Below are positions 20,132 through 35,178 of a stretch of 55,234 bases of DNA, one piece after another (within the stretch, counting starts at the first letter, position 1; every line of letters begins with the position of its first letter). Source of the stretch: Eubacteriales bacterium (GTDB lineage: Bacteria; Bacillota; Clostridia; Oscillospirales; CAG-272); contig JAZUSJ010000140.1 in the NCBI GenBank assembly GCA_045606685.1, positions 1 through 55,234 of the forward strand, given 5' to 3'. Made by a program: the position numbers and the translations under genes. The notes beneath the pieces are model-generated. The model was not told where the DNA came from, ran no database searches, and saw only the letters and a program-made list of their open reading frames with translations.

Positions 20132-20920
20132 ATGAAAACGATCAGAGCGGAACTGTCGGACAAGCTGCAAAGCATGGAGCTTCACCCTCTGGCGGATTGG
20201 CACATCGGGGACGCTATGAGCGATTGGAAGCTGATCCAGAAGACGATCAAGCACATTCAGGAAACGCCCAACGCCTATTGCATTTTGGGCGGCGACCTGA
20301 TGGACACGGCTGTCGCCGCTTCTATCGGGGACACTTACGCGGCAAATCTCCAGCCCATGCAGCAGTTAGAGGCTTGTGCAAAAATCTTTGAGCCGATCAA
20401 GGACAAGATTCTTTGCATCGTTCACGGCAATCACGAAAACCGGGTTTACAAATCGGACGGCATCGACATGACGGCGATCATGGCGGCGCAGCTCGGGCTT
20501 GCGGACAAGTACAGCCCGACGACCGCGCTCCTTTTCTTGTCATTCGGGAAAAACAAGGATTATGCGCAAAGCACGAATCACGCGAGGAAGATTTGCTATG
20601 CCGTGTATGTGACCCACGGCTCGGGCGGCGGGCGCAAGGAGGGCGGCAAGATCAACCGTCTTGCGGACTATGCCACCATCGTGGACGCGGACGTTTACAT
20701 CTGCGGACACACCCATCTGCCCGCGTCGTTCAAGACGGGCTTCGTGCGGACGAATTACAAGGCGCGGACGACCGAGAACGTGACGAAGCTGTTTGTCAAC
20801 ACCGCCTCCGCGCTGGATTACGGCGGGTACGGCGACGTGCAGGGCTATAAGCCGGGGAGCAAGGACAACCCCGTGATCTATCTCAGCGGGCGGGAACGCA
20901 AAATCAACGCTTTCGTGTGA
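20132..20920 (+). CDS. Calcineurin-like metallophosphoesterase
   Basis: Ordered motifs DWHIGD, GGDLMD, HGNHEN, THGSGG and CGHTHLP. Confidence 0.8.
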   Translation: MKTIRAELSDKLQSMELHPLADWHIGDAMSDWKLIQKTIKHIQETPNAYCILGGDLMDTAVAASIGDTYAANLQPMQQLEACAKIFEPIKDKILCIVHGNHENRVYKSDGIDMTAIMAAQLGLADKYSPTTALLFLSFGKNKDYAQSTNHARKICYAVYVTHGSGGGRKEGGKINRLADYATIVDADVYICGHTHLPASFKTGFVRTNYKARTTENVTKLFVNTASALDYGGYGDVQGYKPGSKDNPVIYLSGRERKINAFV

Positions 20921-20954
20921 AAAACGCGGCAACTGATTTTCTTGAAGGGGAGAA

Positions 20955-21254
20955 GTGATTTTCTTGAATGAAAACGAAGCCATGCAGACGATGGCAGAGG
21001 GGATATGGCAATATCTGAAGCCGAAGATCGAGCGCATGACGGCGCGGAACGTGTCGTATTTCCGCGCAACAGTGACGGCAGCGGCGGCGGACGGGAAGAT
21101 TGCCGTGCGAAAGCCGCGGGAAAACAAGGACATTTTGCTCCCTTATGTGACCTCGGCGGCGGGGCTTGCCGTGGGAGATCAATGCACCGTTTTGGTGTTC
21201 GGCAGCGCAAGCAACGCCTTTATCGTGGGGGACGGGACGCTTTCGGGACTGTAA
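20955..21254 (+). CDS. Hypothetical protein (start ambiguous: GTG 20955 or ATG 20968/20982)
   Basis: Last rightward ORF before the strand switch; C-terminus GLAVGDQCTVLVFGSASNAFIVGDG. Confidence 0.45.
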   Translation: MIFLNENEAMQTMAEGIWQYLKPKIERMTARNVSYFRATVTAAAADGKIAVRKPRENKDILLPYVTSAAGLAVGDQCTVLVFGSASNAFIVGDGTLSGL

Positions 21255-21286
21255 AAAAACTTTGCGAAAGGCTTTATTTTCAACTC

Positions 21287-21455
21287 ATTTTCTTGTAGAA
21301 TAAAAATGTCATGAGATGATTGCCACTCAGCCTCCATGATTACTTTTTTCGGAGAAACGCCCTGTGCGAAAGCGCGGGGCGTTTCTCTGTCTGCGAATGA
21401 TGGGGAAAAGAAAAAGCCCCCTGGATGGGGGCGATGGATTTTCTTGTAGAATAAA
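21287..21455. repeat. 18-bp perfect direct repeat ATTTTCTTGTAGAATAAA (21287-21304 and 21438-21455) bracketing a hairpin/terminator segment
   Basis: Exact match read from the sequence; 151-bp period. Confidence 0.9.
21402..21432 (-). terminator. Rho-independent terminator of the leftward operon
   Basis: On the - strand: GCCCCC-ATCCA-GGGGGC followed by TTTTTCTTTTCC, 26 nt after the HTH gene stop. Confidence 0.75.
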
Positions 21456-21457
21456 GG

Positions 21458-22012
21458 TCAAGAGTCGGACAGAATCGACATGACGTCGAGCATGGCGGCG
21501 CGGCTCGGGCTTATGGGCTGCACTTCTTCTGCGATTTTTATGGCTTCTCGCATAAAATTGAAAATCGACAAACCGTTTTTTTCATCCATGCAAGCATTCA
21601 GCGCGCGCATGGCCCTTTCAAAGTTTCTTGAAATCAGCAGCGCTTCACAAGCCTGTTTGTATTGCTGCTTGTGCAGAACGACCACAGCCGATTCCGACAG
21701 TCCGGTATATGCCATCACCGCGTTTTTGTCCCCGTTCAAGTTTTGCAGATTGTTCATCCCGATCAGATAGTCAGCAGATACATCAAGCACGGCTGCAATC
21801 CGCGCAAGGTTTTCCGTATTTGGCTTGTTTACTCCGTTCGTATAACCGGCGATCGTCTGGCGCTGAATCTTTCCATATCGTTCTGTGATTTTGTTTGCAA
21901 GTGAAACCTGTGTTTCTCCGCGCCGCTTCATCAGTTCCCGCAAGCGAACGGCAAAAATGTTGGGTTTCGTTTCAAAAGGCATATTTTTTTCAAAAGGAAT
22001 GTTTTCTTTCAT
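21458..22012 (-). CDS. XRE-family helix-turn-helix regulator with C-terminal domain
   Basis: GGAGGAAATT-ATG. HTH segment FAVRLRELMKRRGETQVSLANKITERYGKIQRQTIAGYTNGVNKPNTENLARIAAVLDVSADYLIG. Confidence 0.8.
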   Translation of the reverse strand: MKENIPFEKNMPFETKPNIFAVRLRELMKRRGETQVSLANKITERYGKIQRQTIAGYTNGVNKPNTENLARIAAVLDVSADYLIGMNNLQNLNGDKNAVMAYTGLSESAVVVLHKQQYKQACEALLISRNFERAMRALNACMDEKNGLSIFNFMREAIKIAEEVQPISPSRAAMLDVMSILSDS

Positions 22013-22055
22013 AATTTCCTCCAACTGCAAAAGGCAGAATTGATTTTCTTGATAT

Positions 22056-22097
22056 GCCCGTGTTTTGCGCCGGAATCGCGCAGGACGGGCTTTTTTC
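22056..22097 (+). terminator. Rightward-reading (antisense to the operon) stem-loop plus T-tract
   Basis: GCCCGT...TGCGC-cggaatc-GCGCA...ACGGGC followed by TTTTTTC on the + strand; there is no U-tract in the - sense. Confidence 0.55.
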
Positions 22098-22178
22098 TTG
22101 TATGACCGTTTTCACGGCGCGGACGCAAATCGGCAAGCCTGAACGGGAAACGGCGGAAAAATCGGCATTGCTGACGGA

Positions 22179-23216
22179 TCAGCACATGGACGAAACGATT
22201 TTTTTGATGCTTTCGTTCGCGGCGGCGGCGGCGGCAAATACGGCGCGGGTATCCTCCATCTGCTTCCTTGCCGTGAGCCGGTCGGAATAGATTTGCGTGG
22301 TGGACGGGTTGGAATGGCCCAGCTCGCCCTGAAGCAGCTCCAGCGAGACGCCGGATCGAAGCTGGAGGCGGGCAAACACGTGCCGCAGATCGTGGGTGCG
22401 GACATTCTTTACGCCTGTGACGTCGTAAACATGGCGCTCCACAAGCGCGGAAAGCCACTGACTTGTGCCGCGGTGAAACGGGACAACTGATTTTCTTGAT
22501 GTTTCGGGATCGGCCTTGTTGATGGATTGCCACCCCTTCGGACAGGTGGTGCCGAAAAGGGGCAGATCGTCCGACGCGTCCAGAGGCCGGATGCCGGAGC
22601 GCAGGTAGGCGGTGAGCGCGGAAACGGCGATCTCGGGCAGATCGACGGTGCGGAACTTTCCGCCCTTGCCGCTCTCTACTGTGAGCAGCCGGTTATGGAA
22701 ATCAACGTGGGCCAGATCAAGGTCAAGCAGCTCGGAATTGCGGATGCCCGTGGATAAAAGCAGGATGATGATGGCATAATTCCGCAGGCGGTTTGTGCCG
22801 CGGGCGCGGTCGTCGTCCGGGAAGGCGAACAGCTTCGCGGCCTGCTCGTTGGTCAGAATCTCGTCATAAGGGCGTTTCTTGATTTTCGGGTAGAGCTTTT
22901 TGCTGACGATGTTTCTTGAATAAAAGCGCATTTCGCCCAGGGTGCGGTCGGTGATGGTGGAATAAAAGCACTCCAGATTGACAAGATATTGCCGGACGGT
23001 GGCGGGGGAAGTCCCTTTCTTGATAAGCTCGTCCCGCCAGGCGATCACGTCTTTGATAGTGGGATCGGCGGCGGCGCCGGTGGTCTGCTGCCAAAAATCG
23101 CAGAAGCGCCGGATGGTGGATTCATAATTTCTTGCCGTGTGGGGGGAAACCTCCGTTGCGCTGAGGTTGTTCAGATAAAAGGCTTTTGCCGCCGCATATT
23201 TATCCAGTGGGGTCAT
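22179..23216 (-). CDS. Tyrosine recombinase, XerC/XerD-like (second recombinase of the phage)
   Basis: SAM-like N-terminal domain; catalytic motifs GIRNSELLDLDL (Arg), HDLRHVFARL (HxxR) and LGHSNPSTTQIYSD (His, Tyr). Confidence 0.85.
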   Translation of the reverse strand: MTPLDKYAAAKAFYLNNLSATEVSPHTARNYESTIRRFCDFWQQTTGAAADPTIKDVIAWRDELIKKGTSPATVRQYLVNLECFYSTITDRTLGEMRFYSRNIVSKKLYPKIKKRPYDEILTNEQAAKLFAFPDDDRARGTNRLRNYAIIILLLSTGIRNSELLDLDLAHVDFHNRLLTVESGKGGKFRTVDLPEIAVSALTAYLRSGIRPLDASDDLPLFGTTCPKGWQSINKADPETSRKSVVPFHRGTSQWLSALVERHVYDVTGVKNVRTHDLRHVFARLQLRSGVSLELLQGELGHSNPSTTQIYSDRLTARKQMEDTRAVFAAAAAANESIKKIVSSMC

Positions 23217-23275
23217 TTCGCTTGCCTCCTATTGATTTTCTTGATACCTTCGTGAACTCCAGGACGGGGGATGGA

Positions 23276-23776
23276 TCAGGCGTCAAGCGCCTGAAGGTAC
23301 TGATTCGCGGCGTCGGTAAGACGATCCACGATGGCCATAAAGTCAGCGTCTTCCGGGGATTCCTTGCTGTAATAGTCGCCGATGTCGTAATTGCCGGGCG
23401 CGCCGAAGTATTCCGCCTCGTCTTTGATCGTGTAAGCAAAAGTCTTGTCTGCGCCGGCGCTCGTCGGCATGATTTTCCCGTCGTTGGTGATGTGCAGATA
23501 ATAGGTGACGCCGCCCGCTGCCTCGTCATACTCGGCGCTGCAATTCTCGCAAAGGGCGCTGAAAACCTCGTCACTCATAAGCTTCTTTTCTTGATGCCAA
23601 TCCATGGCCAGATCGTCGTAAAAATAGAGGGTGCCGTCGATCAGGACGTCCGCGTCGCCGGGATTTTCCGGTGTGATGATCTCGCCGACAAGATTGATCG
23701 CCTCGTCCAGCGTCATGGCGTGATTCGTGATGATCTCGGCAACGGTTTCATTCGTGATAGTGTTGATGATCTTCAT
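23276..23776 (-). CDS. Hypothetical acidic protein (166 aa)
   Basis: TTGGAGGTACAAAAAA-ATG, preceded by a CAAGAAAAT box. Confidence 0.6.
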   Translation of the reverse strand: MKIINTITNETVAEIITNHAMTLDEAINLVGEIITPENPGDADVLIDGTLYFYDDLAMDWHQEKKLMSDEVFSALCENCSAEYDEAAGGVTYYLHITNDGKIMPTSAGADKTFAYTIKDEAEYFGAPGNYDIGDYYSKESPEDADFMAIVDRLTDAANQYLQALDA

Positions 23777-23836
23777 TTTTTTGTACCTCCAACTTATTTT
23801 CTTGTAGTGTATAATTTTATTTTATCATTCTTCGAT

Positions 23837-24016
23837 TTAAGATTCAACGGTTTCTTTTCGCGGCGGGCTGAAGCGAATGAACTCGCAGCCGTGCGGGATC
23901 TTCTTTTTTGCGGCCTCGGCTGATTCGGCCATCACGCAATAGCACATTTCTTGATGCTTTCCGTTTTTCAGCAGCATGATCCAGGGCTTCTCCGTGACGT
24001 TTTTCTTCAGATTCAT
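23837..24016 (-). CDS. Small hypothetical protein (59 aa), not in the ORF track
   Basis: Own translation: MNLKKNVTEKPWIMLLKNGKHQEMCYCVMAESAEAAKKKIPHGCEFIRFSPPRKETVES. AAAGGAGC SD; the ATG overlaps a CAAGAAAAT box. Confidence 0.5.
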   Translation of the reverse strand: MNLKKNVTEKPWIMLLKNGKHQEMCYCVMAESAEAAKKKIPHGCEFIRFSPPRKETVES

Positions 24017-24038
24017 TTTCTTGTATTATGCTCCTTTC

Positions 24039-24383
24039 TCACCATTTCATGTCGATCCCCGGCGCGGGGTTTCCGTCGTACCAGACGCGGCGGAAAATAT
24101 CGGTCAACAGATCGTCGGACTCGTCCTCGGTGCCGTTTTTGTCAAAAAACAGGGTGTAATATGCACCGTCAACCGGAAAGCCGCGGGAAATGATGCTGTA
24201 TTCGTTTCCGTCCTCCGTTTCAAACACAACAAGGTTTCCGGCGGATGATTTTACCCAGCCGCACTCGATGCGGATAAAGTCATTTTGCGGATTGCGGGCC
24301 GTTTTTGCCGGTTTCCCGCAGCCGGAAGCGGTCAGCAGGAGCGCCGCGGCGAAAATGGCCGGAATGATTTTCTTGTTATTCAT
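24039..24383 (-). CDS. Putative secreted lipoprotein (114 aa)
   Basis: Signal peptide MNNKKIIPAIFAAALLLTASGC with a lipobox-like TASGC; GGAGGTGAGCGACGA-ATG. Confidence 0.6.
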   Translation of the reverse strand: MNNKKIIPAIFAAALLLTASGCGKPAKTARNPQNDFIRIECGWVKSSAGNLVVFETEDGNEYSIISRGFPVDGAYYTLFFDKNGTEDESDDLLTDIFRRVWYDGNPAPGIDMKW

Positions 24384-24646
24384 TCGTCGCTCACCTCCGC
24401 AAACTTGCGCAAAAATGGGATCATTTCTTCCGGGATATCACAACAGGCCACGATTGCACCGTCACGCGGGAACAGATCAACAATCGGAATGTTTGTAAAT
24501 CCCTCAAATGCCATGATCCGATTGACCAGGGGCGCGAGCAGCGGATTTTTTCTGCAATCATCATATGCGGATGCGATCAGCACGGGGACGCCGAAATTAT
24601 AACCGGCCTGTCGAAGCTGCCCTAAAGTGATTTTCTTGTTATCCAT
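24380..24646 (-). CDS. Hypothetical protein (88 aa)
   Basis: ATGA overlap with the downstream lipoprotein gene; codons 3-6 are a CAAGAAAAT box. Confidence 0.55.
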   Translation of the reverse strand: MDNKKITLGQLRQAGYNFGVPVLIASAYDDCRKNPLLAPLVNRIMAFEGFTNIPIVDLFPRDGAIVACCDIPEEMIPFLRKFAEVSDE

Positions 24647-24683
24647 GAGATTTTCCCCTCCTGTTTTGATTATAATTCGCCTG

Positions 24684-25073
24684 TCAAGTGGCGATTCGGT
24701 CTGCTATATAATCCCGCCGTAATGCGTCAGCTTCTGCAATAACTGGATTCAATACGTCAAGCGTCAAGCCGTACTTTTCAAAATACTTTTTTAATTGCTG
24801 GCTGCTGGCCTCATAACGTGCGCCGTATTCGTCCCGGATCGCCGTATTTGCAAAATCAAGAAACGCCTCCCAAATAATAGAAGAAGTTTTCCGCCGTTTA
24901 TTCATCAAGGCATTATATAAACGGCTTTTCCCGCCTCCGGCGTTTTCATTTCTCCAGACAATATCAAGTTGCATAAATATTTGTTCATTCAAATATCCTG
25001 CGTTTAATTTGCCGTTCCCAGTGTTCAAGAAATAAGAATCAAGCGCATTAAATGTAATGTTCTGATTTGTCAT
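24684..25073 (-). CDS. Hypothetical protein (129 aa), visibly AT-richer than its neighbours
   Basis: AAGGAGGTTATTGCA-ATG; start chosen inside track ORF 24684..25094. Confidence 0.55.
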   Translation of the reverse strand: MTNQNITFNALDSYFLNTGNGKLNAGYLNEQIFMQLDIVWRNENAGGGKSRLYNALMNKRRKTSSIIWEAFLDFANTAIRDEYGARYEASSQQLKKYFEKYGLTLDVLNPVIAEADALRRDYIADRIAT

Positions 25074-25106
25074 TGCAATAACCTCCTTTTTCAAGTGGCG
25101 ATCCGG

Positions 25107-25388
25107 TCAGCAGATGCAATTTTCTTTGAACTCGGACAGCAGCCCGAAACGGCGCCCGGCCGCGGCGAAAAAGTCTTGAATTGCGAAAATCTCCGCATAT
25201 GATAGGCCGTCGGTATCCATCCCAGAATATTCAATCGCAAGATCCCGCAAGGCGTTTTTCTTTTCTTGATACGTCCGGCCGCTGACTGCGAGCTTCAGAA
25301 CGTTTTCCGCGTCAATCGGTAAATCCTTCATCCGGCGGAAAAGGCCCGCCGTTTTCTTGCCGTGTTCGGTGTAGTTCGCAAGGATCAT
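25107..25388 (-). CDS. Hypothetical protein (93 aa)
   Basis: ATGGAGGTACAAAAA-ATG; start chosen inside track ORF 25107..25469. Confidence 0.55.
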   Translation of the reverse strand: MILANYTEHGKKTAGLFRRMKDLPIDAENVLKLAVSGRTYQEKKNALRDLAIEYSGMDTDGLSYAEIFAIQDFFAAAGRRFGLLSEFKENCIC

Positions 25389-25453
25389 TTTTTGTACCTC
25401 CATATCGTTTTGTTGTTGCGTGGGCCGGTTATTCCCGGCCCGCCGCCTTGTAT

Positions 25454-26143
25454 TTATGCAACTTCCCATTCATACTCGGTGACAGTTTTTTGCCCGCTGA
25501 TCGTCAGCAGCTCCGTTTCTTCTTCCGGGAGACCTTCCCACCCGCAAATCAGCTTTTTGACGTCTTCCGGCCGCCATGCCTCACAATCGGCCACGATAAA
25601 GCCGTAGCAGGTTTCAATCTCTTCTCCGTCTTCATCCAGATCGGCAACGGAATATTCCGTTGCAGCGCCCAACCAGACCTCGCCATACTTTTTCACGCCT
25701 TCCGGGTATGCGTCCTTGCAATAAACCATTTCGCAATAATCGCCTTGCGAATAACCGCGGGCCGATTCAACCGCCCAGGGCTTTTTTGTTGTAATGGTCA
25801 AATATTTAGCAACGTCTTCCGGCTCTGCTACATCCGCATTTTTTGCCCATTCCTTTAGCTTGTGACATTTCGTCGGGCTGTAGTCGATCCTGAGACTTTC
25901 CATAGCTTCTTTGTAACTGGAAAACGCATTCCAGCGGCCGACGTCAGAAAAACAGTCGATCAGATTTTCCGCTTCGCGCTGAATATCTTCATAGATATCC
26001 GCGTTGAAACCGCGTGTTTCCCGCGTCGGTACGATGAAAAGCGTATTGCAAAAATCGCCGCTTTCGGGCTTCAGTCCGTCATCGTCAAAATAATAATTAA
26101 AATCAGCCATTTCCGCGGGGACTTGCTTGATCCTGTACTTCAT
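25454..26143 (-). CDS. Hypothetical acidic protein (229 aa)
   Basis: CAAGAAAAT-AGGAGGTTCAAAAA-ATG; D/E-rich sequence. Confidence 0.6.
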   Translation of the reverse strand: MKYRIKQVPAEMADFNYYFDDDGLKPESGDFCNTLFIVPTRETRGFNADIYEDIQREAENLIDCFSDVGRWNAFSSYKEAMESLRIDYSPTKCHKLKEWAKNADVAEPEDVAKYLTITTKKPWAVESARGYSQGDYCEMVYCKDAYPEGVKKYGEVWLGAATEYSVADLDEDGEEIETCYGFIVADCEAWRPEDVKKLICGWEGLPEEETELLTISGQKTVTEYEWEVA

Positions 26144-26169
26144 TTTTTGAACCTCCTATTTTCTTGATA

Positions 26170-26310
26170 TTACAGATTTTTTAGAAACTTCCCGAGCGGT
26201 TGCACTTGTTCTCCGCTCAGCTTAACCGCGGCCCAGACGCAGACGCCGAAAACCGGATAGCCGATCCCCAGCAGCGCACAAAGGCCGATCATTAAAAATA
26301 ATGCTCCCAT
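26170..26310 (-). CDS. Small membrane protein (46 aa), not in the ORF track
   Basis: Own translation: MGALFLMIGLCALLGIGYPVFGVCVWAAVKLSGEQVQPLGKFLKNL. GGGGGGA SD. Confidence 0.45.
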   Translation of the reverse strand: MGALFLMIGLCALLGIGYPVFGVCVWAAVKLSGEQVQPLGKFLKNL

Positions 26311-26414
26311 GCAATCCCCCCACAAATGATTTTTTTGTTGCAACCTCCCGCCGCTATTGCAGCGGGAACGCTCCCGGCCTAATGCCTGTTTACCCCCGCC
26401 GGGACGGGCTGTTG

Positions 26415-26888
26415 TTATTCCTCGCTTTCCTCGTCTGCCTCTTCCAGCGCGTCAAATAGCGCCGCAAGCTCGCTGTTATCGTCGATCGAATAAATATCGC
26501 TTCTGTTTTCGCTCATGCTTTCGACCGCGTAACGATCCAGAAAAGCGGAATAGTCTTTATGGTCAGCCGAAACAAGATGTCCATAGCCGCTAAACCTGAA
26601 GTATTTGCGGTTAGGGTTGAACGCGCCGCATGCCTTATGTCCGCTGATGTCAGTCGTCCATGTTTCCTCGTCGTATCCATAAAAAGCGCGGAATAAAATC
26701 TCGCTCGGCTTTGCTTCGCTGTCTACCTCGTCAATTCCTTTCATGAAATAATACTTATCGTTTCCAAGATATTCGTTGCAGCCGTCCAATTCTTCAATGC
26801 AGTCGTTGAAAACGTCCTCATTTTTCCGGAAATACTCAATAATTGCGTCGATTGCCGCTTCTCTCGTGGTGTTTTTGGTGGTCTTCAT
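26415..26888 (-). CDS. Hypothetical protein with acidic tail (157 aa)
   Basis: CAAGAAAATAAAT-AGGAGGAAAAGAAAA-ATG. Start chosen inside track ORF 26415..26966. C-terminus LFDALEEADEESEE. Confidence 0.6.
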   Translation of the reverse strand: MKTTKNTTREAAIDAIIEYFRKNEDVFNDCIEELDGCNEYLGNDKYYFMKGIDEVDSEAKPSEILFRAFYGYDEETWTTDISGHKACGAFNPNRKYFRFSGYGHLVSADHKDYSAFLDRYAVESMSENRSDIYSIDDNSELAALFDALEEADEESEE

Positions 26889-26941
26889 TTTTCTTTTCCT
26901 CCTATTTATTTTCTTGTTACCTCGTGACCTCCGGCGCAGTC

Positions 26942-27625
26942 TTATTTTTTCGTGATATGCCAGCAATCAAAGGTTTTTCCACTTCCGGTGTTTCTTGCGC
27001 TGTACCCGGCGCGGTCGAAAATCGACCAGAAACAACTTGATCCGACGCCGCCCTCAAAATAAGGAATTGCGCCATACCCGGACCCATAACCGATAAATTC
27101 ACGGTACGTCTTTCCCGCCTCTATTGCGTTGTCGGCCATGCTATAAAGCACTTTCAGCACGGTTTTTTGATCGTTCAGGGCGCCGGCAATCGCTGCGCTT
27201 TCTTTGTCATAACCGCACCCGCTTGCATGCCCTACCGACCGACGCCCGGCCGGGAATGTACAAACAGTTGCGGTCGGATTGTATCCCCATAGCCGCGACT
27301 TTGCCCACTCAACCGAAACAGTCAGATCTTCCAGATCCCCGGCCGCCGCAACAGATTCAATTTTTTCCAGGGATTCAGCGATCCGCTTTTCCGTTGCTTT
27401 TTTCGCTCTTGCGGTTGCAAGGGCCACGGCCTTTTCCCGGCTGATTTTCCCGTCGGTGTATTGCTTCCAGCGCAAATCCGTTGAATAGCGTCTGATCCCG
27501 TTATCGCTCTTTATTTTTTCTTCGGGCCGCCATGATTCGCAAAAACCGTTTTCAATATATCCCAGGGCTTCCGCAAGGCGCTTTTCCTCTTCCGTGATGA
27601 CTGCGTTTTTCAGATTTTCAAACAT
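26942..27625 (-). CDS. Hypothetical protein (227 aa) with conserved-looking ASGCGYDKES and GYGSGYG motifs
   Basis: ACAGGAGGTATAAAAA-ATG; I do not recognise a family. Confidence 0.6.
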   Translation of the reverse strand: MFENLKNAVITEEEKRLAEALGYIENGFCESWRPEEKIKSDNGIRRYSTDLRWKQYTDGKISREKAVALATARAKKATEKRIAESLEKIESVAAAGDLEDLTVSVEWAKSRLWGYNPTATVCTFPAGRRSVGHASGCGYDKESAAIAGALNDQKTVLKVLYSMADNAIEAGKTYREFIGYGSGYGAIPYFEGGVGSSCFWSIFDRAGYSARNTGSGKTFDCWHITKK

Positions 27626-27649
27626 TTTTTATACCTCCTGTTTTTTCAT

Positions 27650-27680
27650 GCCCGCCGCCGGTTGACGGCGGGCGTTTTTT
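27650..27680 (+). terminator. Rightward-reading intrinsic terminator inside the leftward operon
   Basis: GCCCGCCG-ccggttga-CGGCGGGC followed by G + T6 on the + strand; in the - sense the hairpin is followed by AUGAAAAAAC. Confidence 0.6.
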
Positions 27681-27681
27681 G

Positions 27682-27690
27682 TGTTATAAT
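27682..27690 (+). promoter_or_regulatory. Perfect extended -10 element TGTTATAAT pointing rightward (antisense to 27719..27910)
   Basis: TG at 27682-27683 and TATAAT at 27685-27690; no good -35 is needed for extended -10 promoters. Confidence 0.4.
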
Positions 27691-27718
27691 CAATTTATAG
27701 TATTTAATTTTGTCTGTG

Positions 27719-27910
27719 TTAGCGTTCTGTGGCCTCTTTGAACATCTTGCGAATATCGCGCTTGCTGTACTTGCCAACCAGGCTATAGCAGTATGTTCCG
27801 CAATCTCTTCCAGCGATCTGGACTTCCATAGTCCCAACAGGCTTTCCGCTATCGTCATACAGTCCCCAGATGTTAGCGTAGTTTGTCTGATTGATTAGCT
27901 CTTTAGTCAT
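27719..27910 (-). CDS. Hypothetical protein (63 aa), first gene of the leftward operon
   Basis: ACAGGAGGCAGCGAAAA-ATG. Confidence 0.6.
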   Translation of the reverse strand: MTKELINQTNYANIWGLYDDSGKPVGTMEVQIAGRDCGTYCYSLVGKYSKRDIRKMFKEATER

Positions 27911-27960
27911 TTTTCGCTGCCTCCTGTTTTTTCGTTCGGTTTATTTCCTTTTGTGATTAT

Positions 27961-28056
27961 AGTATAGCAGATAGCTGTACAACTGTAAATAGCAACATTG
28001 CACAAAGATAGTTGTACAATTATATTTTGTTTTGTGTATATTGTACAACTGTAAAT
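27961..28056. promoter_or_regulatory. Divergent promoter/operator region with three TTGTACAA-centred operators
   Basis: TGTACAACTGTAAAT occurs exactly at 27976-27990 and 28042-28056, and the palindrome TTGTACAA at 28012-28019. Leftward promoter: TTTACA (27984-27989 rc), 17 nt, TATACT (27961-27966 rc). Rightward promoter: TTGCAC (27998-28003), 17 nt, TATATT (28021-28026). Confidence 0.7.
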
Positions 28057-28068
28057 GGGGGTTTTAAT

Positions 28069-28347
28069 ATGGCAAAAAATAGCAAAGCAAAGCAGGCGGC
28101 AACGGCGCGATATTTTAATAGAACATATGTTCGTTTTGGTCTCGTTGTCATCCCGTCGGAAATGGACAAAATCAGACAAGCCGCCGCCGCCGCTGGTCAA
28201 TCCGTCAACGCTTATATTTTGACAGCTACAGCCCGCAGAATGGCCGCAGAGGGCTACGAGCTTATCACCACTGTTTCCGCGCTCAAAGCACAGCAGAGCG
28301 CAGCAGAGGCCCCAGGAGAGGCCAAACAGCCGACCACGGAAGAATAG
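28069..28347 (+). CDS. Ribbon-helix-helix (Arc/Mnt/CopG-like) repressor candidate
   Basis: The beta-strand plus two-helix pattern TYVRFGLVVIPSEMDKIRQAAAAAGQSVNAYILTATARRMA; it is adjacent to the palindromic operators. Confidence 0.65.
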   Translation: MAKNSKAKQAATARYFNRTYVRFGLVVIPSEMDKIRQAAAAAGQSVNAYILTATARRMAAEGYELITTVSALKAQQSAAEAPGEAKQPTTEE

Positions 28348-28366: not shown

Positions 28367-28406
28367 AGCCCGCCCGAGCTGAAAAAGCCCGAGCGGGCTT
28401 TATTTT
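28367..28406 (+). terminator. Rho-independent terminator after the RHH gene
   Basis: AGCCCGC...GCGGGCT stem followed by TTTATTTT. Confidence 0.8.
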
Positions 28407-28414
28407 GCCCTGAA

Positions 28415-28546
28415 ACGCCCTATACGCCCCAAACGCCCCCGCCGGGAATACCCATCCCATAATTGCACGCGCTCCCGCGTATACGCGCGCAAACAACGCC
28501 AACACGCCCGCCCGCAGTCTGTAACACTGTATAAACGCCCACGCCC
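28415..28546 (+). repeat. C-rich, G-poor tract with six ACGCCC repeats and a 12-bp palindrome
   Basis: ACGCCC starts at 28415, 28424, 28433 (9-bp period), 28504, 28535 and 28541; CGCGTATACGCG lies at 28476-28487. Confidence 0.85.
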
Positions 28547-28649
28547 CCGGCCCGCGTTTCTCGTCGCTCCCGCCCGCGATTTATCCGGGTGCGGTCTACT
28601 GTACTATATCACCATCTACCCAAGAAAATGCACTAAAGCGGTATACAAT

Positions 28650-28929
28650 AGGGAATGGGTGGGACGCTTACCCGGTGCCCGATATGGACAAGGCCGCCAC
28701 CGTTGGCCAGTGCTGACCGTTTCACCCGTCCGGGCATCCTGGAGCCGTTGCGGGCCGTTGCCGCTTCCAGTCTTGCGATTATGTGTAATAATCACAATAG
28801 TAAGAGCGGTTCAGCCGATACCCGCCCCCCCCCGGTTTACAGTTGGGATCGCTGTTTCTTTGCGCTTTATTCGGTATGCTCTTCCTCTTTTACAGATATC
28901 CCTTACGCCGTAGAGGCGTTATTTTTTTA
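28650..28929 (+). ncRNA. Candidate structured non-coding transcript (family unknown)
   Basis: A -10-like TACAAT at 28644-28649, a GC-rich region with many complementary segments, a C9 tract at 28825-28833, and an ACGCC-gtaga-GGCGT + T7 terminator at its end. No SD-led ORF is present. Confidence 0.3.
28903..28929 (+). terminator. Short stem-loop plus long T-tract
   Basis: ACGCC-GTAGA-GGCGT followed by TTATTTTTTT. Confidence 0.55.
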
Positions 28930-29011
28930 CGCATTTTGTGGGGTGGCGAAAATGCACTTGACATGGTATGTTATGCTGATGCCAACGATGAAAGGAGCGT
29001 GAGGCGTTGTA

Positions 29012-29464
29012 ATGGCGAGGGCAAAGAACAGCAACGTCAAGGTTATTGGTAACGTAGAGAGACTTGCGCGTACTGCCGGACTGAGTTACGGGCAGATGGT
29101 AGCGCAGATGAAGGATTCCGGTGATTCTGGAGAGGTATTTCGGAAATGCAAGTGGTGTTACAAGGCGGCGAAGAAGAACAGCGAGTTTTGTTCACGGGCT
29201 TGTCGGAGTGCGTACAAGGCGCAGGAGAAGATTGATTTAGAGCTTGCGGGGAAATACCGGAGGCGGAGCGGTGAAGTCATTGACGTTAGTGCTTGGAGCG
29301 CGATGTTAAACCGTGGCAAGGGAGACAAGTGCATATTCTGCGGGAAGCCGATACCGAAGGGGAGCAACCGTTTTTACTATTGCAGTGCGGAGTGTTCTGT
29401 TTTGGCGCGGCAATTTGGAGTAGACCCTGGCAATTGGAAGAAGAAAGCCGGGGTGAAGGAATAG
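29012..29464 (+). CDS. Zinc-ribbon protein with two FCS-like Cys motifs
   Basis: GAAAGGAG SD; motifs CKWCYK...FCSRACRSAY and CIFCGK...YYCSAECS. Confidence 0.6.
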   Translation: MARAKNSNVKVIGNVERLARTAGLSYGQMVAQMKDSGDSGEVFRKCKWCYKAAKKNSEFCSRACRSAYKAQEKIDLELAGKYRRRSGEVIDVSAWSAMLNRGKGDKCIFCGKPIPKGSNRFYYCSAECSVLARQFGVDPGNWKKKAGVKE

Positions 29465-30151
29465 ATGCTGATGACGAGGCGAGAGAGGGCAAAGAGGCGG
29501 AGGCAAAAACTGATTTTCAATTTTCTGCGCTTCGCGCTTACATTGAGCGTGATCTATTTCTGCATTTTATCCTTTTTCACATGGGAATCTCCCTCAACGC
29601 CATTTTTTTGGACGGATTCGGGGCAATTTGAGGCGAACGGATGTTCTGCCGAGTGTTTGCCCGCCTGCACCAAAAAACCCGCTAAAACGCAATCTGACGC
29701 AAATAACGAGGTAAAGGAGAACTGGCCCATGCTTGACGCGATGATCGAAGACACCTACCTGTGCGCTGACGTACCGTTGGAGTACGACTTACAGAGAGAC
29801 CTATACGGGGCGTGTTTAGAGAGCGGTTTGGAATATGCTGTTGCTTTGGGCGTCATTGAGCAGGAAACGCGGTTTAAGAACGTATCCGGTGACAGCGGTG
29901 CATCTGTTGGGTATATGCAGATTCAAGAGAAGTGGCACAAGGGGCGGATGGAGAAACTGGGCGTAACGGATTTATTTGATCCTGTCGGCAATTTCCGTGT
30001 GGGCTGCGACTATCTGGCTGAGTGTATTGGGAAATACGGCTTAGAGCGCGGCTTGTGCTGTTACAATTCCGGGCGGCCCGGTGAGAGCCGATACAGCAGA
30101 GAGGCCATGGAACGGATTGAAAAGTGGAGGGACGTTATAGGATGGCGTTAA
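29465..30151 (+). CDS. Membrane-anchored lytic transglycosylase (SLT domain)
   Basis: N-terminal TM helix (LTLSVIYFCILSFF). SLT motifs VIEQETRF (catalytic Glu), SVGYMQI and CCYNSG. Confidence 0.75.
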   Translation: MLMTRRERAKRRRQKLIFNFLRFALTLSVIYFCILSFFTWESPSTPFFWTDSGQFEANGCSAECLPACTKKPAKTQSDANNEVKENWPMLDAMIEDTYLCADVPLEYDLQRDLYGACLESGLEYAVALGVIEQETRFKNVSGDSGASVGYMQIQEKWHKGRMEKLGVTDLFDPVGNFRVGCDYLAECIGKYGLERGLCCYNSGRPGESRYSREAMERIEKWRDVIGWR

Positions 30152-30963
30152 GAGATCAGCCGTATTTGCCGTTGTACGTACAAGATTTCATAACTGATGA
30201 AAAACTGTGCTGTTGCAGTTCCTCGGCAAACGGCGTTTACATTTGGCTCATGTGTCTACTGCACAAATGCGAGGATTATGGGTGCATGGAACTGCAAGAT
30301 TGGCAGATTGATGAAACGAAAAGCATCTGCTTTAATTTTGCTTTTCGACTTTCGCGTCAAATGCCATTTGATGTTGAAGATATTGAACGTGCGCTTTCCG
30401 AGCTTTTGAGGAACAGAGTGATCGAAATTGACGGGAAAAAGTTGATGCAGAAGCGCATGGTGAGGGACGGAAACCTTAGTAAAATCAAGGCTTCAGCGGG
30501 AAAAATGGGTGGTAGACCGAAAAAAGCAAACAAAAAGCAAAATGAAAAGCAAAACGAAAGCATAAAAAAAGCAAAACAAAAGCAAAACACTGAAAATGAA
30601 AATGAATATAAATATGAAGATGAAAATAAGAAAAAGAAAGGGGTTTTAGGGGGAAGATTTGACGAGTTTTGGTCTGCATATCCTCGCAAGGTCGGGAAGG
30701 GCGCGGCGAGAAAGAGTTGGGAGAAGATCGAGCCGGACGACATTCTGTTCGAGAAAATCATGGCGTCGGTAGAAGCTGCGAAGCAGAGCAAGGAATGGCG
30801 GAAGGACAACGGCGAGTACATTCCTTATCCTGCCACATGGCTGAACAGAGAGGGATGGGAAGACGATCTGTCCGGTGTTGATCTGAGTTCCGGCGAGAAG
30901 GATGAAACGATGTACGGGCTTGAAGAGGCCATAGAGAGAGCAAGGCGGGAGGCGGGAAGATGA
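30142..30963 (+). CDS. Replication organiser, DUF1376-like N-terminus with low-complexity linker
   Basis: The N-terminus MALRDQPYLPLYVQDFITDEKL...GVYIWLMCLL is DUF1376-like. The C-terminus FDEFWSAYPRKVGKGAARKSWEKI is seen in phage replication proteins. Confidence 0.6.
   Translation: MALRDQPYLPLYVQDFITDEKLCCCSSSANGVYIWLMCLLHKCEDYGCMELQDWQIDETKSICFNFAFRLSRQMPFDVEDIERALSELLRNRVIEIDGKKLMQKRMVRDGNLSKIKASAGKMGGRPKKANKKQNEKQNESIKKAKQKQNTENENEYKYEDENKKKKGVLGGRFDEFWSAYPRKVGKGAARKSWEKIEPDDILFEKIMASVEAAKQSKEWRKDNGEYIPYPATWLNREGWEDDLSGVDLSSGEKDETMYGLEEAIERARREAGR
30520..30650. repeat. Phased A-tract/AAAGCAAAAC-type repeats plus an AT-rich stretch inside the organiser gene (ori candidate)
   Basis: AGCA starts at 30525, 30536, 30548, 30559, 30570 and 30581 (11-12 bp spacing), followed by GAAAATGAAAATGAATATAAATATGAAGATGAAAATAAG. 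Confidence 0.5.
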
Positions 30964-34255: not shown

Positions 34256-34622
34256 AATCGGTGACGAGATCAACATTTACGACGAGGGCGAAGAGAAAGT
34301 CACGCCCGAGATGGAAGCAAAAATGACGGCCTCCCTGTTTTGGGGAGCCGCCATGAGAATCCACCACTTTTTCAGAAACGACGAACAGCTTGCAATGAAA
34401 GTGTGGAACAAATATACCGAGCTTGGCGAAATGAGGCTGAGGGCGCTTTATCTGGAACAAAATCGCAAAGACAGGCCGAGCGGTTGTTGCGATTGCTACC
34501 GTATAGAGTTTGGCAGACCTGTGTGTTACGGGACGAGAGAGAAAGAATCGTGCAAGTGCGGTGGCTGCGAAGAAAACTGTGATTTTTACGAGAAACGGAG
34601 GGTCAAAAAAAGTGGCAGATGA
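34239..34622 (+). CDS. Cys-rich hypothetical protein overlapping the toxin gene start (antitoxin candidate)
   Basis: AAAGGAGAAAC-ATG; C-terminal motif CCDCYRIEFGRPVCYG...CKCGGCEENC; 11-nt overlap with 34612..35052. Confidence 0.5.
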   Translation: MKIIFEIGDEINIYDEGEEKVTPEMEAKMTASLFWGAAMRIHHFFRNDEQLAMKVWNKYTELGEMRLRALYLEQNRKDRPSGCCDCYRIEFGRPVCYGTREKESCKCGGCEENCDFYEKRRVKKSGR

Positions 34623-35052
34623 AATCAAGCGTGGCGATATTTACTGGATTGCGGCAGAAGAAGGCGATTCCGTCTGGAGCGACGAGCCGACAAAATGCCG
34701 TCCGGGAGTTATCGTATCAAACGACAAGGGCAATATGTTTTCATCTTACGTGGTTGTTGTGTATACGACGACAAGAACAAAAAAGCCGCTTGCTACACAC
34801 TTTGAAACCGATTCCACGCCCGCCCGCTCAACCGTAATGTGCGAGGACATTTACACGATAAAGAAAGACCGACTGACGGAATACATCGGGTCACTCACTG
34901 ATGACGATGTTGAAACGCTCAACAAGTGCCTTGCGGTCGAGCTTGCGCTGGATTGCGAGGCAAAAGACACGGCGGACGTTTCGGAACTGAAGAAAGAACT
35001 TGATTTTTACAAGCAGGTATATAACAAAATTATTGACAAGCTGGTCGGGTAA
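34612..35052 (+). CDS. MazF/PemK-family toxin-like endoribonuclease with C-terminal coiled-coil extension
   Basis: KRGDIYWI...KCRPGVIVSNDKGN...VVVVYTTT...PLATHFE...STVMCEDIYTIKKDRLTEYIGSL follows the PemK/MazF pattern. The GTG start (34612) is inferred. Confidence 0.75.
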   Translation: MADEIKRGDIYWIAAEEGDSVWSDEPTKCRPGVIVSNDKGNMFSSYVVVVYTTTRTKKPLATHFETDSTPARSTVMCEDIYTIKKDRLTEYIGSLTDDDVETLNKCLAVELALDCEAKDTADVSELKKELDFYKQVYNKIIDKLVG

Positions 35053-35102: not shown

Positions 35103-35170
35103 GGGAATACACGATTCCTAATTGACTGGGGGTCAAGAGGCCGTGAGTTCAAGTCTCGCCACTCGGACCA
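35103..35170 (+). other. attP core candidate: 3' portion of a tRNA-Pro(GGG) gene (no 5' acceptor strand)
   Basis: Anticodon arm (a)TTGA-CTGGGGG-TCAA(g), variable loop AGGCC, T arm GTGAG-TTCAAGT-CTCGC, then acceptor strand CACTCGG, A and CCA ending at 35170. The upstream 7-mer CAAACCG cannot pair with the acceptor strand. Confidence 0.65.
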
Positions 35171-35178
35171 AAGCAAAA

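Follow-up and report, generated by a model that had tools for sequence, protein, structure and literature searches.

The 55,234-nt stretch of Clostridia DNA analysed here (the window; contig JAZUSJ010000140.1) contains a leftward array of small accessory genes in which one 9-base sequence recurs on a single strand, mostly close to gene starts. The question is what this sequence does and why it is kept in untranslated leaders, start codons and coding sequence alike. It is called the box below and reads CAAGAAAAT in the sense of the operon and ATTTTCTTG on the + strand.

A search of the whole window for ATTTTCTTG on the + strand recovered 13 exact copies between 20936 and 26916, the same copies as those listed in the original prediction. 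In total, ATTTTCTTG/CAAGAAAAT occur exactly 15 times in the window, with 13 copies on the + strand and two on the − strand (28621 and 45142). The whole-window expectation from 100 dinucleotide shuffles was 0.94 copies, with a maximum of 4, against 13 in the array. When 504 permutations of the same composition were counted on the sense strand of 20900–27000, the mean was 0.19 copies versus 13 for the box, and the high-count permutations were shifted versions of the box and no others. The 8-mer CAAGAAAA has 20 copies in − sense and 3 in + sense. The two outside copies had been described as lying in the sense of local transcription, a description that does not hold up: both lack the box flanks and are compatible with chance, the 28621 copy is missing in all relatives covering the region, and zero + strand copies were found in any locus.

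The array features are collected in Table 1. Its genes encode products of 63, 227, 157, 46, 229, 93/120, 136, 88, 114, 59 and 166 aa. The extended sense-strand form of the box is YWW-CAAGAAAAY-CANT, and the surrounding leader is A-rich and predicted to be unstructured apart from a small GC hairpin, the frequent order being hairpin, box and Shine-Dalgarno (SD) sequence. The box is one member of a broader set of A-rich leaders including CAAGAAAAC, CAAAAAAAT and CAAAAAAC. Its offset from the ATG ranges between −31 and +8, with a spacing of 14–19 nt ahead of the ATGs at 23216, 23776, 26143 and 26888. The proposed placements beside the SD of these four starts, across the ATG at 24016, in codons 3–6 of the genes with starts at 24383 and 24646, upstream of the start at 22012 and within the recombinase gene all agree with the sequence, and the one-mismatch copies claimed at 22092 and 26329 were both found. 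The four copies said to lie past the operon end are correctly positioned; the context of two of them was misjudged, as those at 20936 and 20958 are antisense to the start of a + strand ORF (20955/20964–21254) that is a true gene, whose TTG start is provided by the box at 20958–20966. Box sites are densest at the distal array end, adjoining convergent late genes.

Table 1. Boxes and associated features of the accessory gene array (positions in the window)
Feature	Position	Strand	Remarks
Array of small promoterless accessory genes	23276..27910	-	leftward from the 27940-28060 promoter region
Pre-box GC hairpin (PBE) GCGCCGGAGGTCACGAGGTA	26918..26937	-	consensus in relatives CCCGCCCCGGAGGTCACGAGGGC
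Box CAAGAAAAT	26908..26916	-	ATG of 157-aa gene 19 nt on; PBE hairpin ahead
Pistol self-cleaving ribozyme at cassette junction	26339..26409	-	
Degenerate box CAAAAAAAT	26329..26337	-	directly 3' of pistol ribozyme; ATG of 46-aa gene 15 nt on
Box abutting SD of 229-aa gene	26158..26166	-	in relatives, junction before 229, 69, 78 or 93-aa gene
Box as codons 3-6 of 88-aa gene (start 24646)	24630..24638	-	
Box as codons 3-6 of 114-aa lipoprotein-like gene (start 24383)	24367..24375	-	
Box across ATG (24016) of 59/63-aa gene	24015..24023	-	
Box at left edge of cassette hot spot	23796..23804	-	sequences of relatives part directly 3'
Degenerate PBE ahead of recombinase box	23246..23262	-	
Box at right edge of hot spot	23235..23243	-	recombinase ATG 18 nt on
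Xer-like tyrosine recombinase, distal array end	22179..23216	-	found in all relatives
Box within recombinase ORF, reads S-R-K-S	22490..22498	-	exact in 10/10 relatives
CAAAAAAAT in recombinase C-terminus	22198..22206	-	exact CAAGAAAAT in relatives; synonymous G>A in window
One-mismatch copy CAAGAAAAA	22092..22100	-	CAAGAAAAC in L081 and L336; hairpin directly after
Box 30 nt ahead of HTH ATG (22012)	22043..22051	-	left limit of HTH cassette
HTH_3 / RstR-like regulator, 184 aa	21458..22012	-	dispensable cassette between boxes
Box 11 nt past HTH stop, ahead of terminator hairpin	21438..21446	-	right limit of HTH cassette
Box between terminators and 3' end of reverse 96/99-aa gene	21287..21295	-	
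Double box (20936-20944 and 20958-20966) around SD of + strand 96/99-aa gene	20936..20966	-	
Reverse-oriented 96/99-aa gene between boxes	20955..21254	+	near-wholly synonymous conservation

Ten distinct related contigs conserve the box as a specific, strand-fixed sequence: each carries 6–13 exact copies (10–13 where the array is covered), all in the operon sense and with none on the antisense strand. Sense and antisense counts were 12/0 in L081, 13/0 in L205 and 12/0 in L207, and L334–L343 gave 6–13 sense copies and 0 on the opposite strand; L341 repeats L334, and L343, with 6 copies, is a truncated locus in which the double box is mutated in both copies. Besides the copy within the recombinase ORF, orthologous boxes are exact at 24367 (9/9 relatives), 24630 (8/8) and 23235 (7/7). 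The boxes in codons 3–6 stay unchanged while residues 2–3 vary, with a constant C at the wobble position just ahead of them; at box 24630 this C is kept although the residue varies between N, T and S. Across 342 nt of non-coding alignment, none of the 18 columns in exact boxes is variable, compared with 14% elsewhere, and the 5′ flanks are far more divergent than the 3′ flanks. The relatives diverge by only 3–4%, a distance too small to tell concerted evolution from purifying selection.

These relatives are approximately 96–97% identical in their late genes, and the gene array is different in each, with nine distinct arrays in all. Homology between arrays begins or ends at box edges, and several insertions, deletions and replacements have exact box limits, the “empty” site retaining one chimeric box. 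In the hot spot 23796–23235, the gene content takes at least four unrelated forms, with length variants in addition. It is empty in L340, where boxes 23796 and 23235 are fused into a single chimeric junction, ctacactaCAAGAAAATcaataggagg, and the state of L343 matches by gene spacing and box position. The 229-aa gene has been lost from L335, leaving taacaaCAAGAAAACggaggtacaaaaa behind, and in L081 loss of the 88-aa gene has fused the in-ORF boxes 24367 and 24630 and produced a chimeric N-terminus. Boxes 22043 and 21438 enclose the HTH cassette, and genomes in which the HTH gene is missing retain one box, although this indel is imperfect as a box-to-box product, being 10–15 nt off. In one relative, at least one of the cassettes is anti-CRISPR-like.

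Ends of HSPs fall near boxes in 46 of 229 cases against 11.4 expected under uniformity, a fourfold enrichment. About 80% of the blast-defined homology breakpoints are located away from boxes, often in other common junction sequence. Box-less junctions recombine too, and the proximal cassettes have A-rich leaders without an exact box. The window and L205 have the 227-aa and 157-aa genes in opposite order around unmoved junction elements, with breakpoints in the SD/leader and in the common 5′ half of the hairpin. The suggestion that the box is a cassette-exchange junction is supported by the alignment of relatives, where several independent events have their gene presence/absence breakpoints at boxes; the Xer-like enzyme is no more than a candidate for this exchange, and most breakpoints lie elsewhere.

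We tentatively interpret the box as the conserved joint and leader of a hypervariable array whose promoterless accessory cassettes are shuffled by homology-driven recombination in a lineage of siphophages of the gut Clostridia type. A typical junction leads from a stop codon through the small GC hairpin and the unstructured A-rich leader, usually including the box, to the SD and ATG; box, hairpin and SD are almost the sole sequence common to otherwise unrelated cassettes. Recombination between two junctions of one genome would yield a deletion and a putative mini-circle; alternatively, junctions of co-infecting relatives may recombine. Genes would be added, removed, replaced or reordered, and the leader of the downstream gene would always be restored intact. 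Crossovers probably depend on short homology (e.g., by way of replication slippage or a phage RecE/YqaJ-type system), with no dedicated site-specific reaction involved; a phage-encoded RecE/YqaJ-type exonuclease counts in favour of this. In addition, the box would serve directly as a recognised leader element in the leftward transcript, a role that would account for its near-perfect conservation. Closely related phages, in short, gain, lose and replace small accessory genes at one strand-fixed 9-base sequence. Against this interpretation, 9 to about 16 identical bases are very short for homologous recombination (the PeSLs of T4-type phages span about 100 bp), and no recognising factor was found. 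Three sets of boxes also fall outside what a joint and leader role can explain: the one or two conserved copies in the recombinase ORF, the copy that separates the HTH stop from its terminator, and those past the terminators around the reverse-oriented gene.

The other explanations fare less well. It is highly improbable that the box has no function and is an artefact of composition or of hitch-hiking with A-rich leaders passed on by descent: the sense strand is indeed A-rich, the leaders CAAAAAAC and CAAGAAAAC grade into the box, and other phages also have homogenised junction sequences (L080 AAAGGGGTT, L085 TAGACGAAAGGAGAC), but the permutation counts, the exact copies occupying three reading frames inside ORFs and further non-leader positions, and the absence of the box from the opposite strand of all relatives argue otherwise. 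Complete strand specificity would follow automatically if the box acted in the leftward mRNA, as the target of a repressor or endoribonuclease (RegA/RegB-like, possibly MazF/PemK) or of pairing with late mRNA, and served early-operon shut-off. For eight of the 13 boxes the distance to a sense start codon is between −31 and +17, which puts them inside the ribosome footprint in UTR, start codon and ORF alike, and the leaders are predicted to be unstructured. The pistol ribozyme cuts the same transcript at one junction, directly 5′ of a degenerate box; the box ahead of the 3′ terminator hairpin and those in the long recombinase ORF would suit decay-initiating cleavage, and a PemK/MazF-like protein is encoded at 34510–35052. 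The complement occurs in a single natural transcript: around the 96/99-aa gene, the late mRNA holds 3–4 anti-boxes, two of which bracket the SD of that gene. Such an RNA role is nevertheless unlikely: boxes 21287, 20958 and 20936 lie past two terminators, the latter two antisense to the + strand gene, known MazF sites comprise 3–7 nt versus the 9-nt box, no binding protein was found, and an RNA role alone gives no reason for homology breaks exactly at box edges.

Two explanations place recognition in DNA. The box could form the conserved part, either arm or core, of an asymmetric site at which the Xer-like recombinase excises and inserts circular cassettes in integron-like fashion. This enzyme closes the distal array end in every relative, with its own box, and is a second recombinase beside the canonical integrase, which lies at 35.1–36.8 kb together with a CI-type repressor and a tRNA fragment as candidate attP; the top NCBIfam match of the Xer-like enzyme is “XerA / integron integrase”. 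The boxes are all direct repeats, empty sites have a single chimeric box, and the reverse-oriented gene sits between boxes of unchanged orientation. Moreover, ATTTTCTTG equals 9 bases of the L. lactis difSL right half-site ATCTTTCCGAAAAACTGTAATTTTCTTGACA bound by XerS (PMC2965235), an identity that may be coincidental given all known sites, and the tyrosine recombinase Rci can use sfx sites with one conserved arm (PMC11852207), although the asymmetry of these sites is thought to limit recombination to inverted ones (PMC11852207). We consider this reading doubtful. No box in four genomes has an inverted partner arm within 4–14 nt, nor is a second arm visible in the sequence logo; the recombinase scores are far below the cutoffs of all NCBIfam families (integron integrase 78 vs. 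265, XerS 69 vs. 267); many rearrangements occur at box-less junctions, with ORFs relocating without flanking junction elements; two boxes lie within the recombinase gene itself; and L082 and L345 have related recombinases and the same architecture and no strong box. The second explanation, that a phage protein binds the box as a stoperator and imposes a polar block on leftward elongation, silencing the array in lysogens, is improbable. The asymmetric site of about 14–16 bp in a single orientation relative to operon transcription matches the L5 type (PMC9283540), as do positions that are for the most part in short gaps between genes, with others inside ORFs and past terminators. The distal crowding beside convergent late genes also speaks for this explanation. 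However, the obvious candidate, the 184-aa HTH protein, which had been proposed as a box binder, is refuted in practice because seven box-bearing contigs lack its gene (L334–336, L339–340 and L342–343); L208 encodes a near-identical HTH domain and has zero boxes in 13 kb. Further, the sites are limited to one 6-kb region, no conserved copy covers an early promoter, the 28621 copy being unconserved, and the divergent promoter region holds TTGTACAA palindromes, which are better operator candidates. A roadblock would require neither one site per cassette nor sites in codons 3–6.

The original prediction held that no known feature class behaves in this way, which is incorrect in view of start-associated sequences (SAS; PMC3203893), Cluster A stoperators (PMC9283540) and T4-type PeSLs (PMC2839356). 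Integrons (IntI/attI/attC) share promoterless, same-orientation cassettes with a common promoter, a flanking tyrosine recombinase gene, fast cassette turnover, a short conserved core at cassette limits and tolerance of reverse ORFs. The present array differs in having no IntI-type integrase and no attC imperfect palindromes, in the recombinase being at the distal and not the promoter end of the operon, and in its many rearrangements without a box. In the XerS/difSL system of lactococci and streptococci, two inverted arms surround a central region, whereas the box matches part of one half-site only, has no partner arm, and the recombinase is not an XerS equivalog. The Rci/sfx shufflon likewise shows one-armed sites in use, but those are inverted and give inversions, while all boxes are direct repeats. 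Stoperators of Cluster A phages are asymmetric, about 13 bp long and numerous, lie mostly in short gaps and are oriented with transcription; their genome-wide spread, site over the early promoter and known monomeric two-domain repressor have no counterparts here (PMC9283540).

The nearest known kinds are the T4-type PeSL shuffling cassettes and the start-associated sequences of Cluster K mycobacteriophages. In the available part of their description (PMC3203893), SAS/ESAS are short asymmetric repeats with 11–19 copies per genome, in a single orientation in the non-structural genome part, beside start codons of unrelated gene families, and about half have a second imperfect palindrome directly upstream, comparable to the PBE hairpin. 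The SAS, GGGATAGGAGCCC, includes the SD and lies at a fixed 3–7 bp ahead of the start, and no link to cassette breakpoints was seen in that part of the source (PMC3203893); SAS function is still unverified (PMC12699233). The box, in contrast, is separate from the SD at −31 to +8, occurs also in ORFs, past terminators and antisense to a gene start, and belongs to another host clade with another sequence. PeSLs share with it a conserved regulatory junction element ahead of small ORFans in a hyperplastic region (PMC2839356, PMC4122927), indels and replacements between sister phages limited by the element, with one chimeric element at the empty site, and crossovers that map to the interval from the upstream motif to the SD/ATG. 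In one sister phage, PeSL-flanked ORFans are replaced by one chimeric PeSL (PMC2839356). Each PeSL, about 100 bp long, combines a strong sigma-70 promoter with a terminator stem-loop, making every cassette its own transcription unit, whereas the box repeats exactly over 9 bases (about 16 including flanks, about 50 including hairpin and SD), is promoterless and lies within one polycistronic operon, and here a tyrosine recombinase gene closes the array. PeSL-ORFan cassettes have been likened to integrons by their authors (PMC2839356, PMC4122927), and the array described here would be a case of PeSL-type modular shuffling in which the regulatory element provides a far shorter repeat.

The conserved 9-mer box, which reads ATTTTCTTG on the + strand, has 13 exact + strand copies between 20936 and 26916. 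Dinucleotide-shuffled windows contained 0.94 copies on average and never more than 4, and the count in the original prediction holds against these shuffled controls; its details of box placement were also all correct on re-check against the sequence. Among 504 permutations of the same composition, the mean on the sense (−) strand of 20900–27000 was 0.19 copies, and high counts were obtained for shifted versions of the box only. The 8-mer CAAGAAAA was found 20 times in the − sense and 3 times in the + sense. Alignment of the copies gives an extended motif of approximately YWW-CAAGAAAAY-CANT, and no second, inverted arm was found in the aligned copies. The exact and near copies share one strand within a 6-kb accessory region, and the same is true of the related contigs. 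The whole window holds only two further copies, on the − strand at 28621 and 45142. They had been listed with the others, but neither possesses the box flanks, and the 28621 copy is missing in every relative covering that stretch. An sRNA gene at 28621 carrying the complement of the box was rejected because this copy is not conserved.

The box lies along a leftward unit (see the table) of eleven small genes, almost none of which has family matches, followed by genes for an Xer-like recombinase and an HTH protein. The intergenic gaps of the array are short and promoter-less; promoter-like sites cluster in the divergent region at 27940–28160, besides isolated weak consensus matches, and no conserved −35/−10 elements were found upstream of the boxes. 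A typical junction consists of a stop codon, a small GC hairpin, an unstructured A-rich leader, a Shine-Dalgarno (SD) sequence and ATG, the leader being either the box or CAAGAAAAC, CAAAAAAAT or CAAAAAAC. The junction hairpins have no U-tract on the sense strand. The hairpins of the leftward operon at 27648–27675, 25333–25351, 22061–22087 and 21416–21432 have T-runs on the + strand side only and would stop antisense transcripts running in from the convergent late operon; three of these T-runs are boxes or near-boxes in the + strand reading.

Coordinates of the box array, its junction elements and other features (genes named by product length)
Feature	Contig	Position	Strand	Remark
Divergent promoter region with TTGTACAA palindromes	window	27940–28060		head of leftward unit
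Xer-like tyrosine recombinase	window	22179–23216	−	
HTH_3/RstR-like gene	window	21458–22012	−	
Bidirectional terminator	window	21416–21432		end of leftward unit
96/99-aa gene ORF	window	20955–21254	+	beyond terminator
tRNA 3′ fragment	window	near 35126–35172		canonical lysogeny module
386-aa integrase	window	35297–36457	−	canonical lysogeny module
Cro/CI-type HTH	window	36454–36831	−	canonical lysogeny module
Pistol ribozyme	window	26339–26409	−	cassette junction
Pistol ribozyme	L205	6126–6197		
Pre-box element (PBE)	window	26918–26937; 23246–23262		
PBE	L081	4260; 5092; 7419; 8022; 8342		
PBE	L214–L333			
Hot-spot content 1				166, 129, 127, 107, 60 aa; one family, different lengths
Hot-spot content 2				55 aa
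Hot-spot content 3				64 + 72 aa
Hot-spot content 4				59 + 78 + unannotated ORF + 79 aa
Iteron-like cluster	L039	3250–4396		
Iteron-like cluster	L045	12903–16396		
Iteron-like cluster	L019	9200–9286		
Iteron-like cluster	L015	2918–2990		
Iteron-like cluster	L018	2392–2458		
Iteron-like cluster	L002	3214–3418		

The box orientation follows the sense of the leftward operon in all copies except 20936 and 20958. These two do not belong to a leftward transcript context; they are antisense, within the initiation region of a + strand gene. In four genomes, substitutions in this 96/99-aa ORF are almost all synonymous, while in the overlapping − strand ORF both the start codon and the frame are lost; the + strand ORF is therefore the real gene. 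Its TTG start codon is supplied by the second copy of the double box (20958–20966). In the related contig L343 (~9973–10003), each copy has a single substitution (ATTTTCTTA and ATTTTCGTG), which leaves the gene with a GTG start.

The surroundings of the array contain several other elements. Three TTGTACAA-centred palindromes (ctgtacaactgtaaat, agttgtacaatt, attgtacaactgtaaat) at 27973–28055, between the divergent promoters, are probably operators for the RHH protein (28069–28347) or another repressor. Between the RHH terminator and the rightward early promoter lie 550 nt of GC-rich non-coding sequence (28400–28950) in which ACGCCC motifs recur. Further genes of the window encode a 150-aa zinc-ribbon protein (29012–29464) and a MazF-like protein (34510–35052). 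The replication-initiator gene (30124–30963, phrog_270) carries four tandem-like copies of AAAGCAAAA at 30534–30587, probably origin iterons. The canonical lysogeny module, where the tRNA 3′ fragment is the probable attP core, is far from the box array, and the Xer-like enzyme of the array is hence a second recombinase. A tnpB gene (OrfB_IS605/Cas12f-like TNB, 38703–39866, +) is inserted beside the YqaJ/RecE exonuclease gene and is directly followed by a RAGATH-18 RNA match (39905–39977, +, 63.9 bits), presumably the guide (omega) RNA region of the tnpB element.

No close relative was found in INPHARED or IMG/VR, and a pattern scan of genome contigs gave random hits only. Related contigs were obtained from Logan and ENA assemblies via protein look-ups, in which the recombinase led to L081, the HTH protein to L205/L206 and L207, and the 96-aa protein, which is indexed in 59 blocks, to L334–L343. 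L337 is the L205 contig, L338 is the L081 contig and L341 is nearly identical to L334; with duplicates set aside, ten distinct relatives remain. Each has 6–13 exact boxes on the operon sense strand and none on the other, the lowest count belonging to the truncated locus of L343. The late genes are ~96–97% identical, yet the array differs in each distinct genome; there are nine different arrays among them. At cleanly anchored sites, the orthologous box is exact in 10/10, 9/9, 8/8 and 7/7 relatives (clean sites only, the anchor-based orthology count being noisy at SD-containing anchors). In 342 aligned non-coding columns, 14% of those outside boxes are variable versus 0/18 in exact boxes. The boxes forming codons 3–6 are exact despite changes in the preceding residues (N, T, S, Y), whose wobble base next to the box is C in every case. 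Exceptions are a synonymous G>A in the window at 22198, a T/C alternation at position 9 and the mutated double box of L343. At 3–4% divergence, selection and concerted evolution of the box are inseparable.

The comparison of relatives supports, as a pattern, the proposal that the box is a junction sequence tied to cassette exchange. Presence/absence breakpoints coincide with boxes in several relatives, where indels and replacements are bounded by boxes and chimeric boxes mark empty sites. The hot spot between boxes 23796 and 23235 is occupied by no fewer than four unrelated sets of genes across the relatives, besides length variants. In L340 it is empty, the 63-aa gene being followed by the recombinase gene with a single chimeric box ctacactaCAAGAAAATcaataggagg in between, and gene spacing and box position in L343 match those of L340. 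The 229-aa gene is gone from L335, where the 46-aa and 93-aa genes meet at one box. L081 has no 88-aa gene, and its 114-aa gene takes the upstream region and first codons of the 88-aa gene, the joint falling within the box. The HTH gene is flanked by boxes 22043 and 21438, and genomes without it retain one box, with a 10–15-nt difference. Sequence divergence begins right at the box edges, and of 229 homology ends defined by blast, 46 are no more than 6 nt from a box, with 11.4 expected.

About 80% of the homology ends lie away from boxes, which means that the box is not the sole joint. Proximal cassettes have A-rich leaders without the box, and a cassette between the 93-aa and 88-aa genes is located at a degenerate CAAGCAATT. 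L205 has the 227-aa and 157-aa genes in the opposite order to the window, with the junction elements unmoved; the breakpoints are at the SD/leader and at the shared 5′ half of the hairpin or ribozyme. Recombinase gene haplotypes, tested for blocks breaking at internal boxes, are mosaic throughout. IMG/VR contigs encoding homologues of the 227-aa protein feature dense iteron-like clusters of direct repeats, such as TTGAGATTT, present 17 times in 1.2 kb.

A small GC hairpin, the PBE, precedes two boxes in the window and 3–5 junctions in relatives. It reads CCCG-CCCCGGAGGTNACGAGGGC and forms a 6-bp stem with a bulged A and the loop GAGGUNA. The PBE was also found in more than 120 IMG/VR phage contigs (117 distinct contexts), all without the box, nearly always after a stop codon and directly abutting a AGAAAGGA Shine-Dalgarno and ATG, as well as in Flavonifractor phage Castelnaud (ON453903), MT835520/1 and one Microviridae record. 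The PBE hit points to Flavonifractor or another of the Oscillospiraceae as the host. No Rfam family matches the PBE, which gut Clostridia phages seem to share widely as an initiation-region element not described before. One cassette junction inside the polycistronic operon of the window contains a pistol self-cleaving ribozyme (Rfam 64.9 bits; gathering score 34.5), directly followed by a one-mismatch box. Rfam confirms the ribozyme in the window and L205, and L334–L336 and L340 show the same sequence; L081 and L339 have a 69-aa gene or the PBE hairpin at this position. The first 12 and last ~20 nt of the ribozyme resemble the two PBE halves. Ribozymes as a general feature of related arrays were rejected, as none was present in 16 other loci.

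In L207, the hot-spot cassette immediately upstream of the recombinase box (994–1377) encodes an AcrIC5 anti-CRISPR domain (45.3 bits; Pfam cutoff 27). Judging by this domain match, the array may carry anti-defence genes. The 166-aa gene of the window, at the same position, has the N-terminus alone in common with it. Other phages that carry homologous genes have start-associated boxes of their own, AAAGGGGTT before 12 consecutive ATGs in L080 (6974–12649) and TAGACGAAAGGAGAC before 5–7 genes in L085 (171–6241), and homogenised junctions seem to be common in such arrays. The layout of a small-gene array leading to an Xer-like recombinase, convergent with lysis genes, recurs in the distant L345 (2724–9620), L082 and L085. 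RadC and DarA_C cassettes are part of the L345 array, as is a 99-aa homologue, there in sense orientation. When covariation of box and recombinase was examined in these distant relatives, L085 had its own box TAGACGAAAGGAG, and L082 and L345 had no strong box.

Several assignments of the box were rejected. A promoter element has no conserved −35 to point to, and the box abuts or follows the SD or ATG, so a transcript started there would lack an SD. Replication-origin iterons do not agree with the 6-kb spread of the copies, and the replication-initiator gene has an iteron cluster of its own. Nothing similar to the box occurs at the IS ends, which discards a TnpB TAM or guide relation. Membership in a larger known RNA family was dismissed, since the pistol ribozyme is the sole Rfam match around the box, even at E up to 10.

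The best-supported reading of the box is a PeSL-like situation (cf. PMC2839356). A conserved leader or junction element would be the sole homology between unrelated promoterless cassettes and, for that reason, the preferred joint for gain, loss and reordering. The exchange would probably be driven by short homology; the phage encodes a RecE/YqaJ exonuclease. The PeSL-like reading leaves the copies inside the recombinase gene, between the HTH stop codon and the terminator, and around the reverse gene unexplained, and these keep three rivals alive: a stoperator-like roadblock, an RNA operator or RNase target, and an integron-like site-specific system. The suggestion that the box is a DNA site for the HTH regulator fails, as the sole HTH gene of the region is missing from seven box-bearing contigs. 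A near-identical HTH domain is present in L208 with no box in 13 kb, and L081 has a divergent recognition helix yet the same box. For T4 RegA/RegB-type RNA targets, where a phage protein binds or cleaves the initiation regions of early mRNA, the placement of 8 of the 13 copies within the ribosome-binding window provides positional information only, and the other five lie away from any sense-strand start.

In the integron-like version, a phage-borne gene-capture platform would have the Xer-like recombinase excise and insert promoterless anti-defence cassettes via the one-armed, XerS-half-site-related box, which we consider unlikely. Lactococcus lactis difSL, ATCTTTCCGAAAAACTGTAATTTTCTTGACA, holds the exact 9-mer in its XerS-bound half-site (PMC2965235); this identity is a lead that may be a coincidence. 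One-armed sites are known from Rci/sfx, where asymmetry is believed to confine recombination to inverted sites. The array enzyme is Xer-like, yet its matches reach none of the family cutoffs, with 77.9 bits for TIGR02249 (cutoff 265) and 58.5 for NF011946 (cutoff 435) among the IntI-type models and 68.7 for the XerS model NF003462 (cutoff 267), in the catalytic segment only. A full palindromic recombination site was rejected, as CAAGAAAA-N4-14-TTTTCTTG with up to two mismatches was found in none of the window, L081, L205 and L207. The chance that a recombinase drives a truly new cassette system here is modest; if real, the platform would be distinct from both IntI/attC integrons and T4 PeSLs.

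Anti-defence and other accessory genes of phages reside in hypervariable islands whose rapid turnover is poorly understood. Here, the joints are visible at nucleotide resolution, and the same 9-mer delimits several exchanges. If the recombinase uses the box, this would be a new phage gene-capture system and a handle for anti-defence gene discovery, with anything between two boxes being a candidate. If the box is only a shared leader, the PeSL idea of regulatory repeats as recombination handles extends beyond T4-type myoviruses to temperate gut siphophages, where the repeat is far shorter.

Of the known systems, integrons share with the array the promoterless cassettes in one orientation behind a common promoter. 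However, they rely on an IntI-type integrase, and each cassette ends 3′ in an attC imperfect palindrome, whereas the box is asymmetric and the PBE is absent from most junctions. XerS/difSL differs in its two inverted arms around a central region, the box having no partner arm, and in a cognate recombinase of the XerS family. PeSLs combine a strong sigma-70 promoter and a terminator stem-loop in ~100 bp, and the box has neither; in both cases, the element marks the limits of indels and replacements between sister phages, and one chimeric element is left at the empty site. The PeSL type further includes extrachromosomal mini-circles formed by element-by-element exchange. Cluster A stoperators likewise follow the direction of transcription. 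Unlike the box, confined to one region, they are genome-wide with an operator at the early lytic promoter. They are bound by a phage-encoded monomeric repressor with HTH and stoperator domains, a role from which the HTH protein of the array is excluded. Among repeat classes, the Cluster K SAS/ESAS elements (PMC3203893), the function of which is still unverified (PMC12699233), come closest to the box. SAS includes the SD and keeps a fixed distance of 3–7 bp to the start codon, in contrast to the box, which is separate from the SD and lies at −31 to +8 relative to the ATG. About half of the SAS sites have an imperfect inverted repeat (ESAS) on their upstream side; the PBE, a generic element in other phages, precedes two boxes of the window and 3–5 junctions in relatives. 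Similar to SAS, the box is a short asymmetric repeat in one orientation in a non-structural region, within the range of ~11–19 copies per genome. The original observation is confirmed and extended to a phage lineage. The box is best grouped with start-associated or boundary repeats that would mediate modular shuffling, and as the Firmicute-phage counterpart of the unexplained mycobacteriophage sequences it provides natural variants for testing such repeats.
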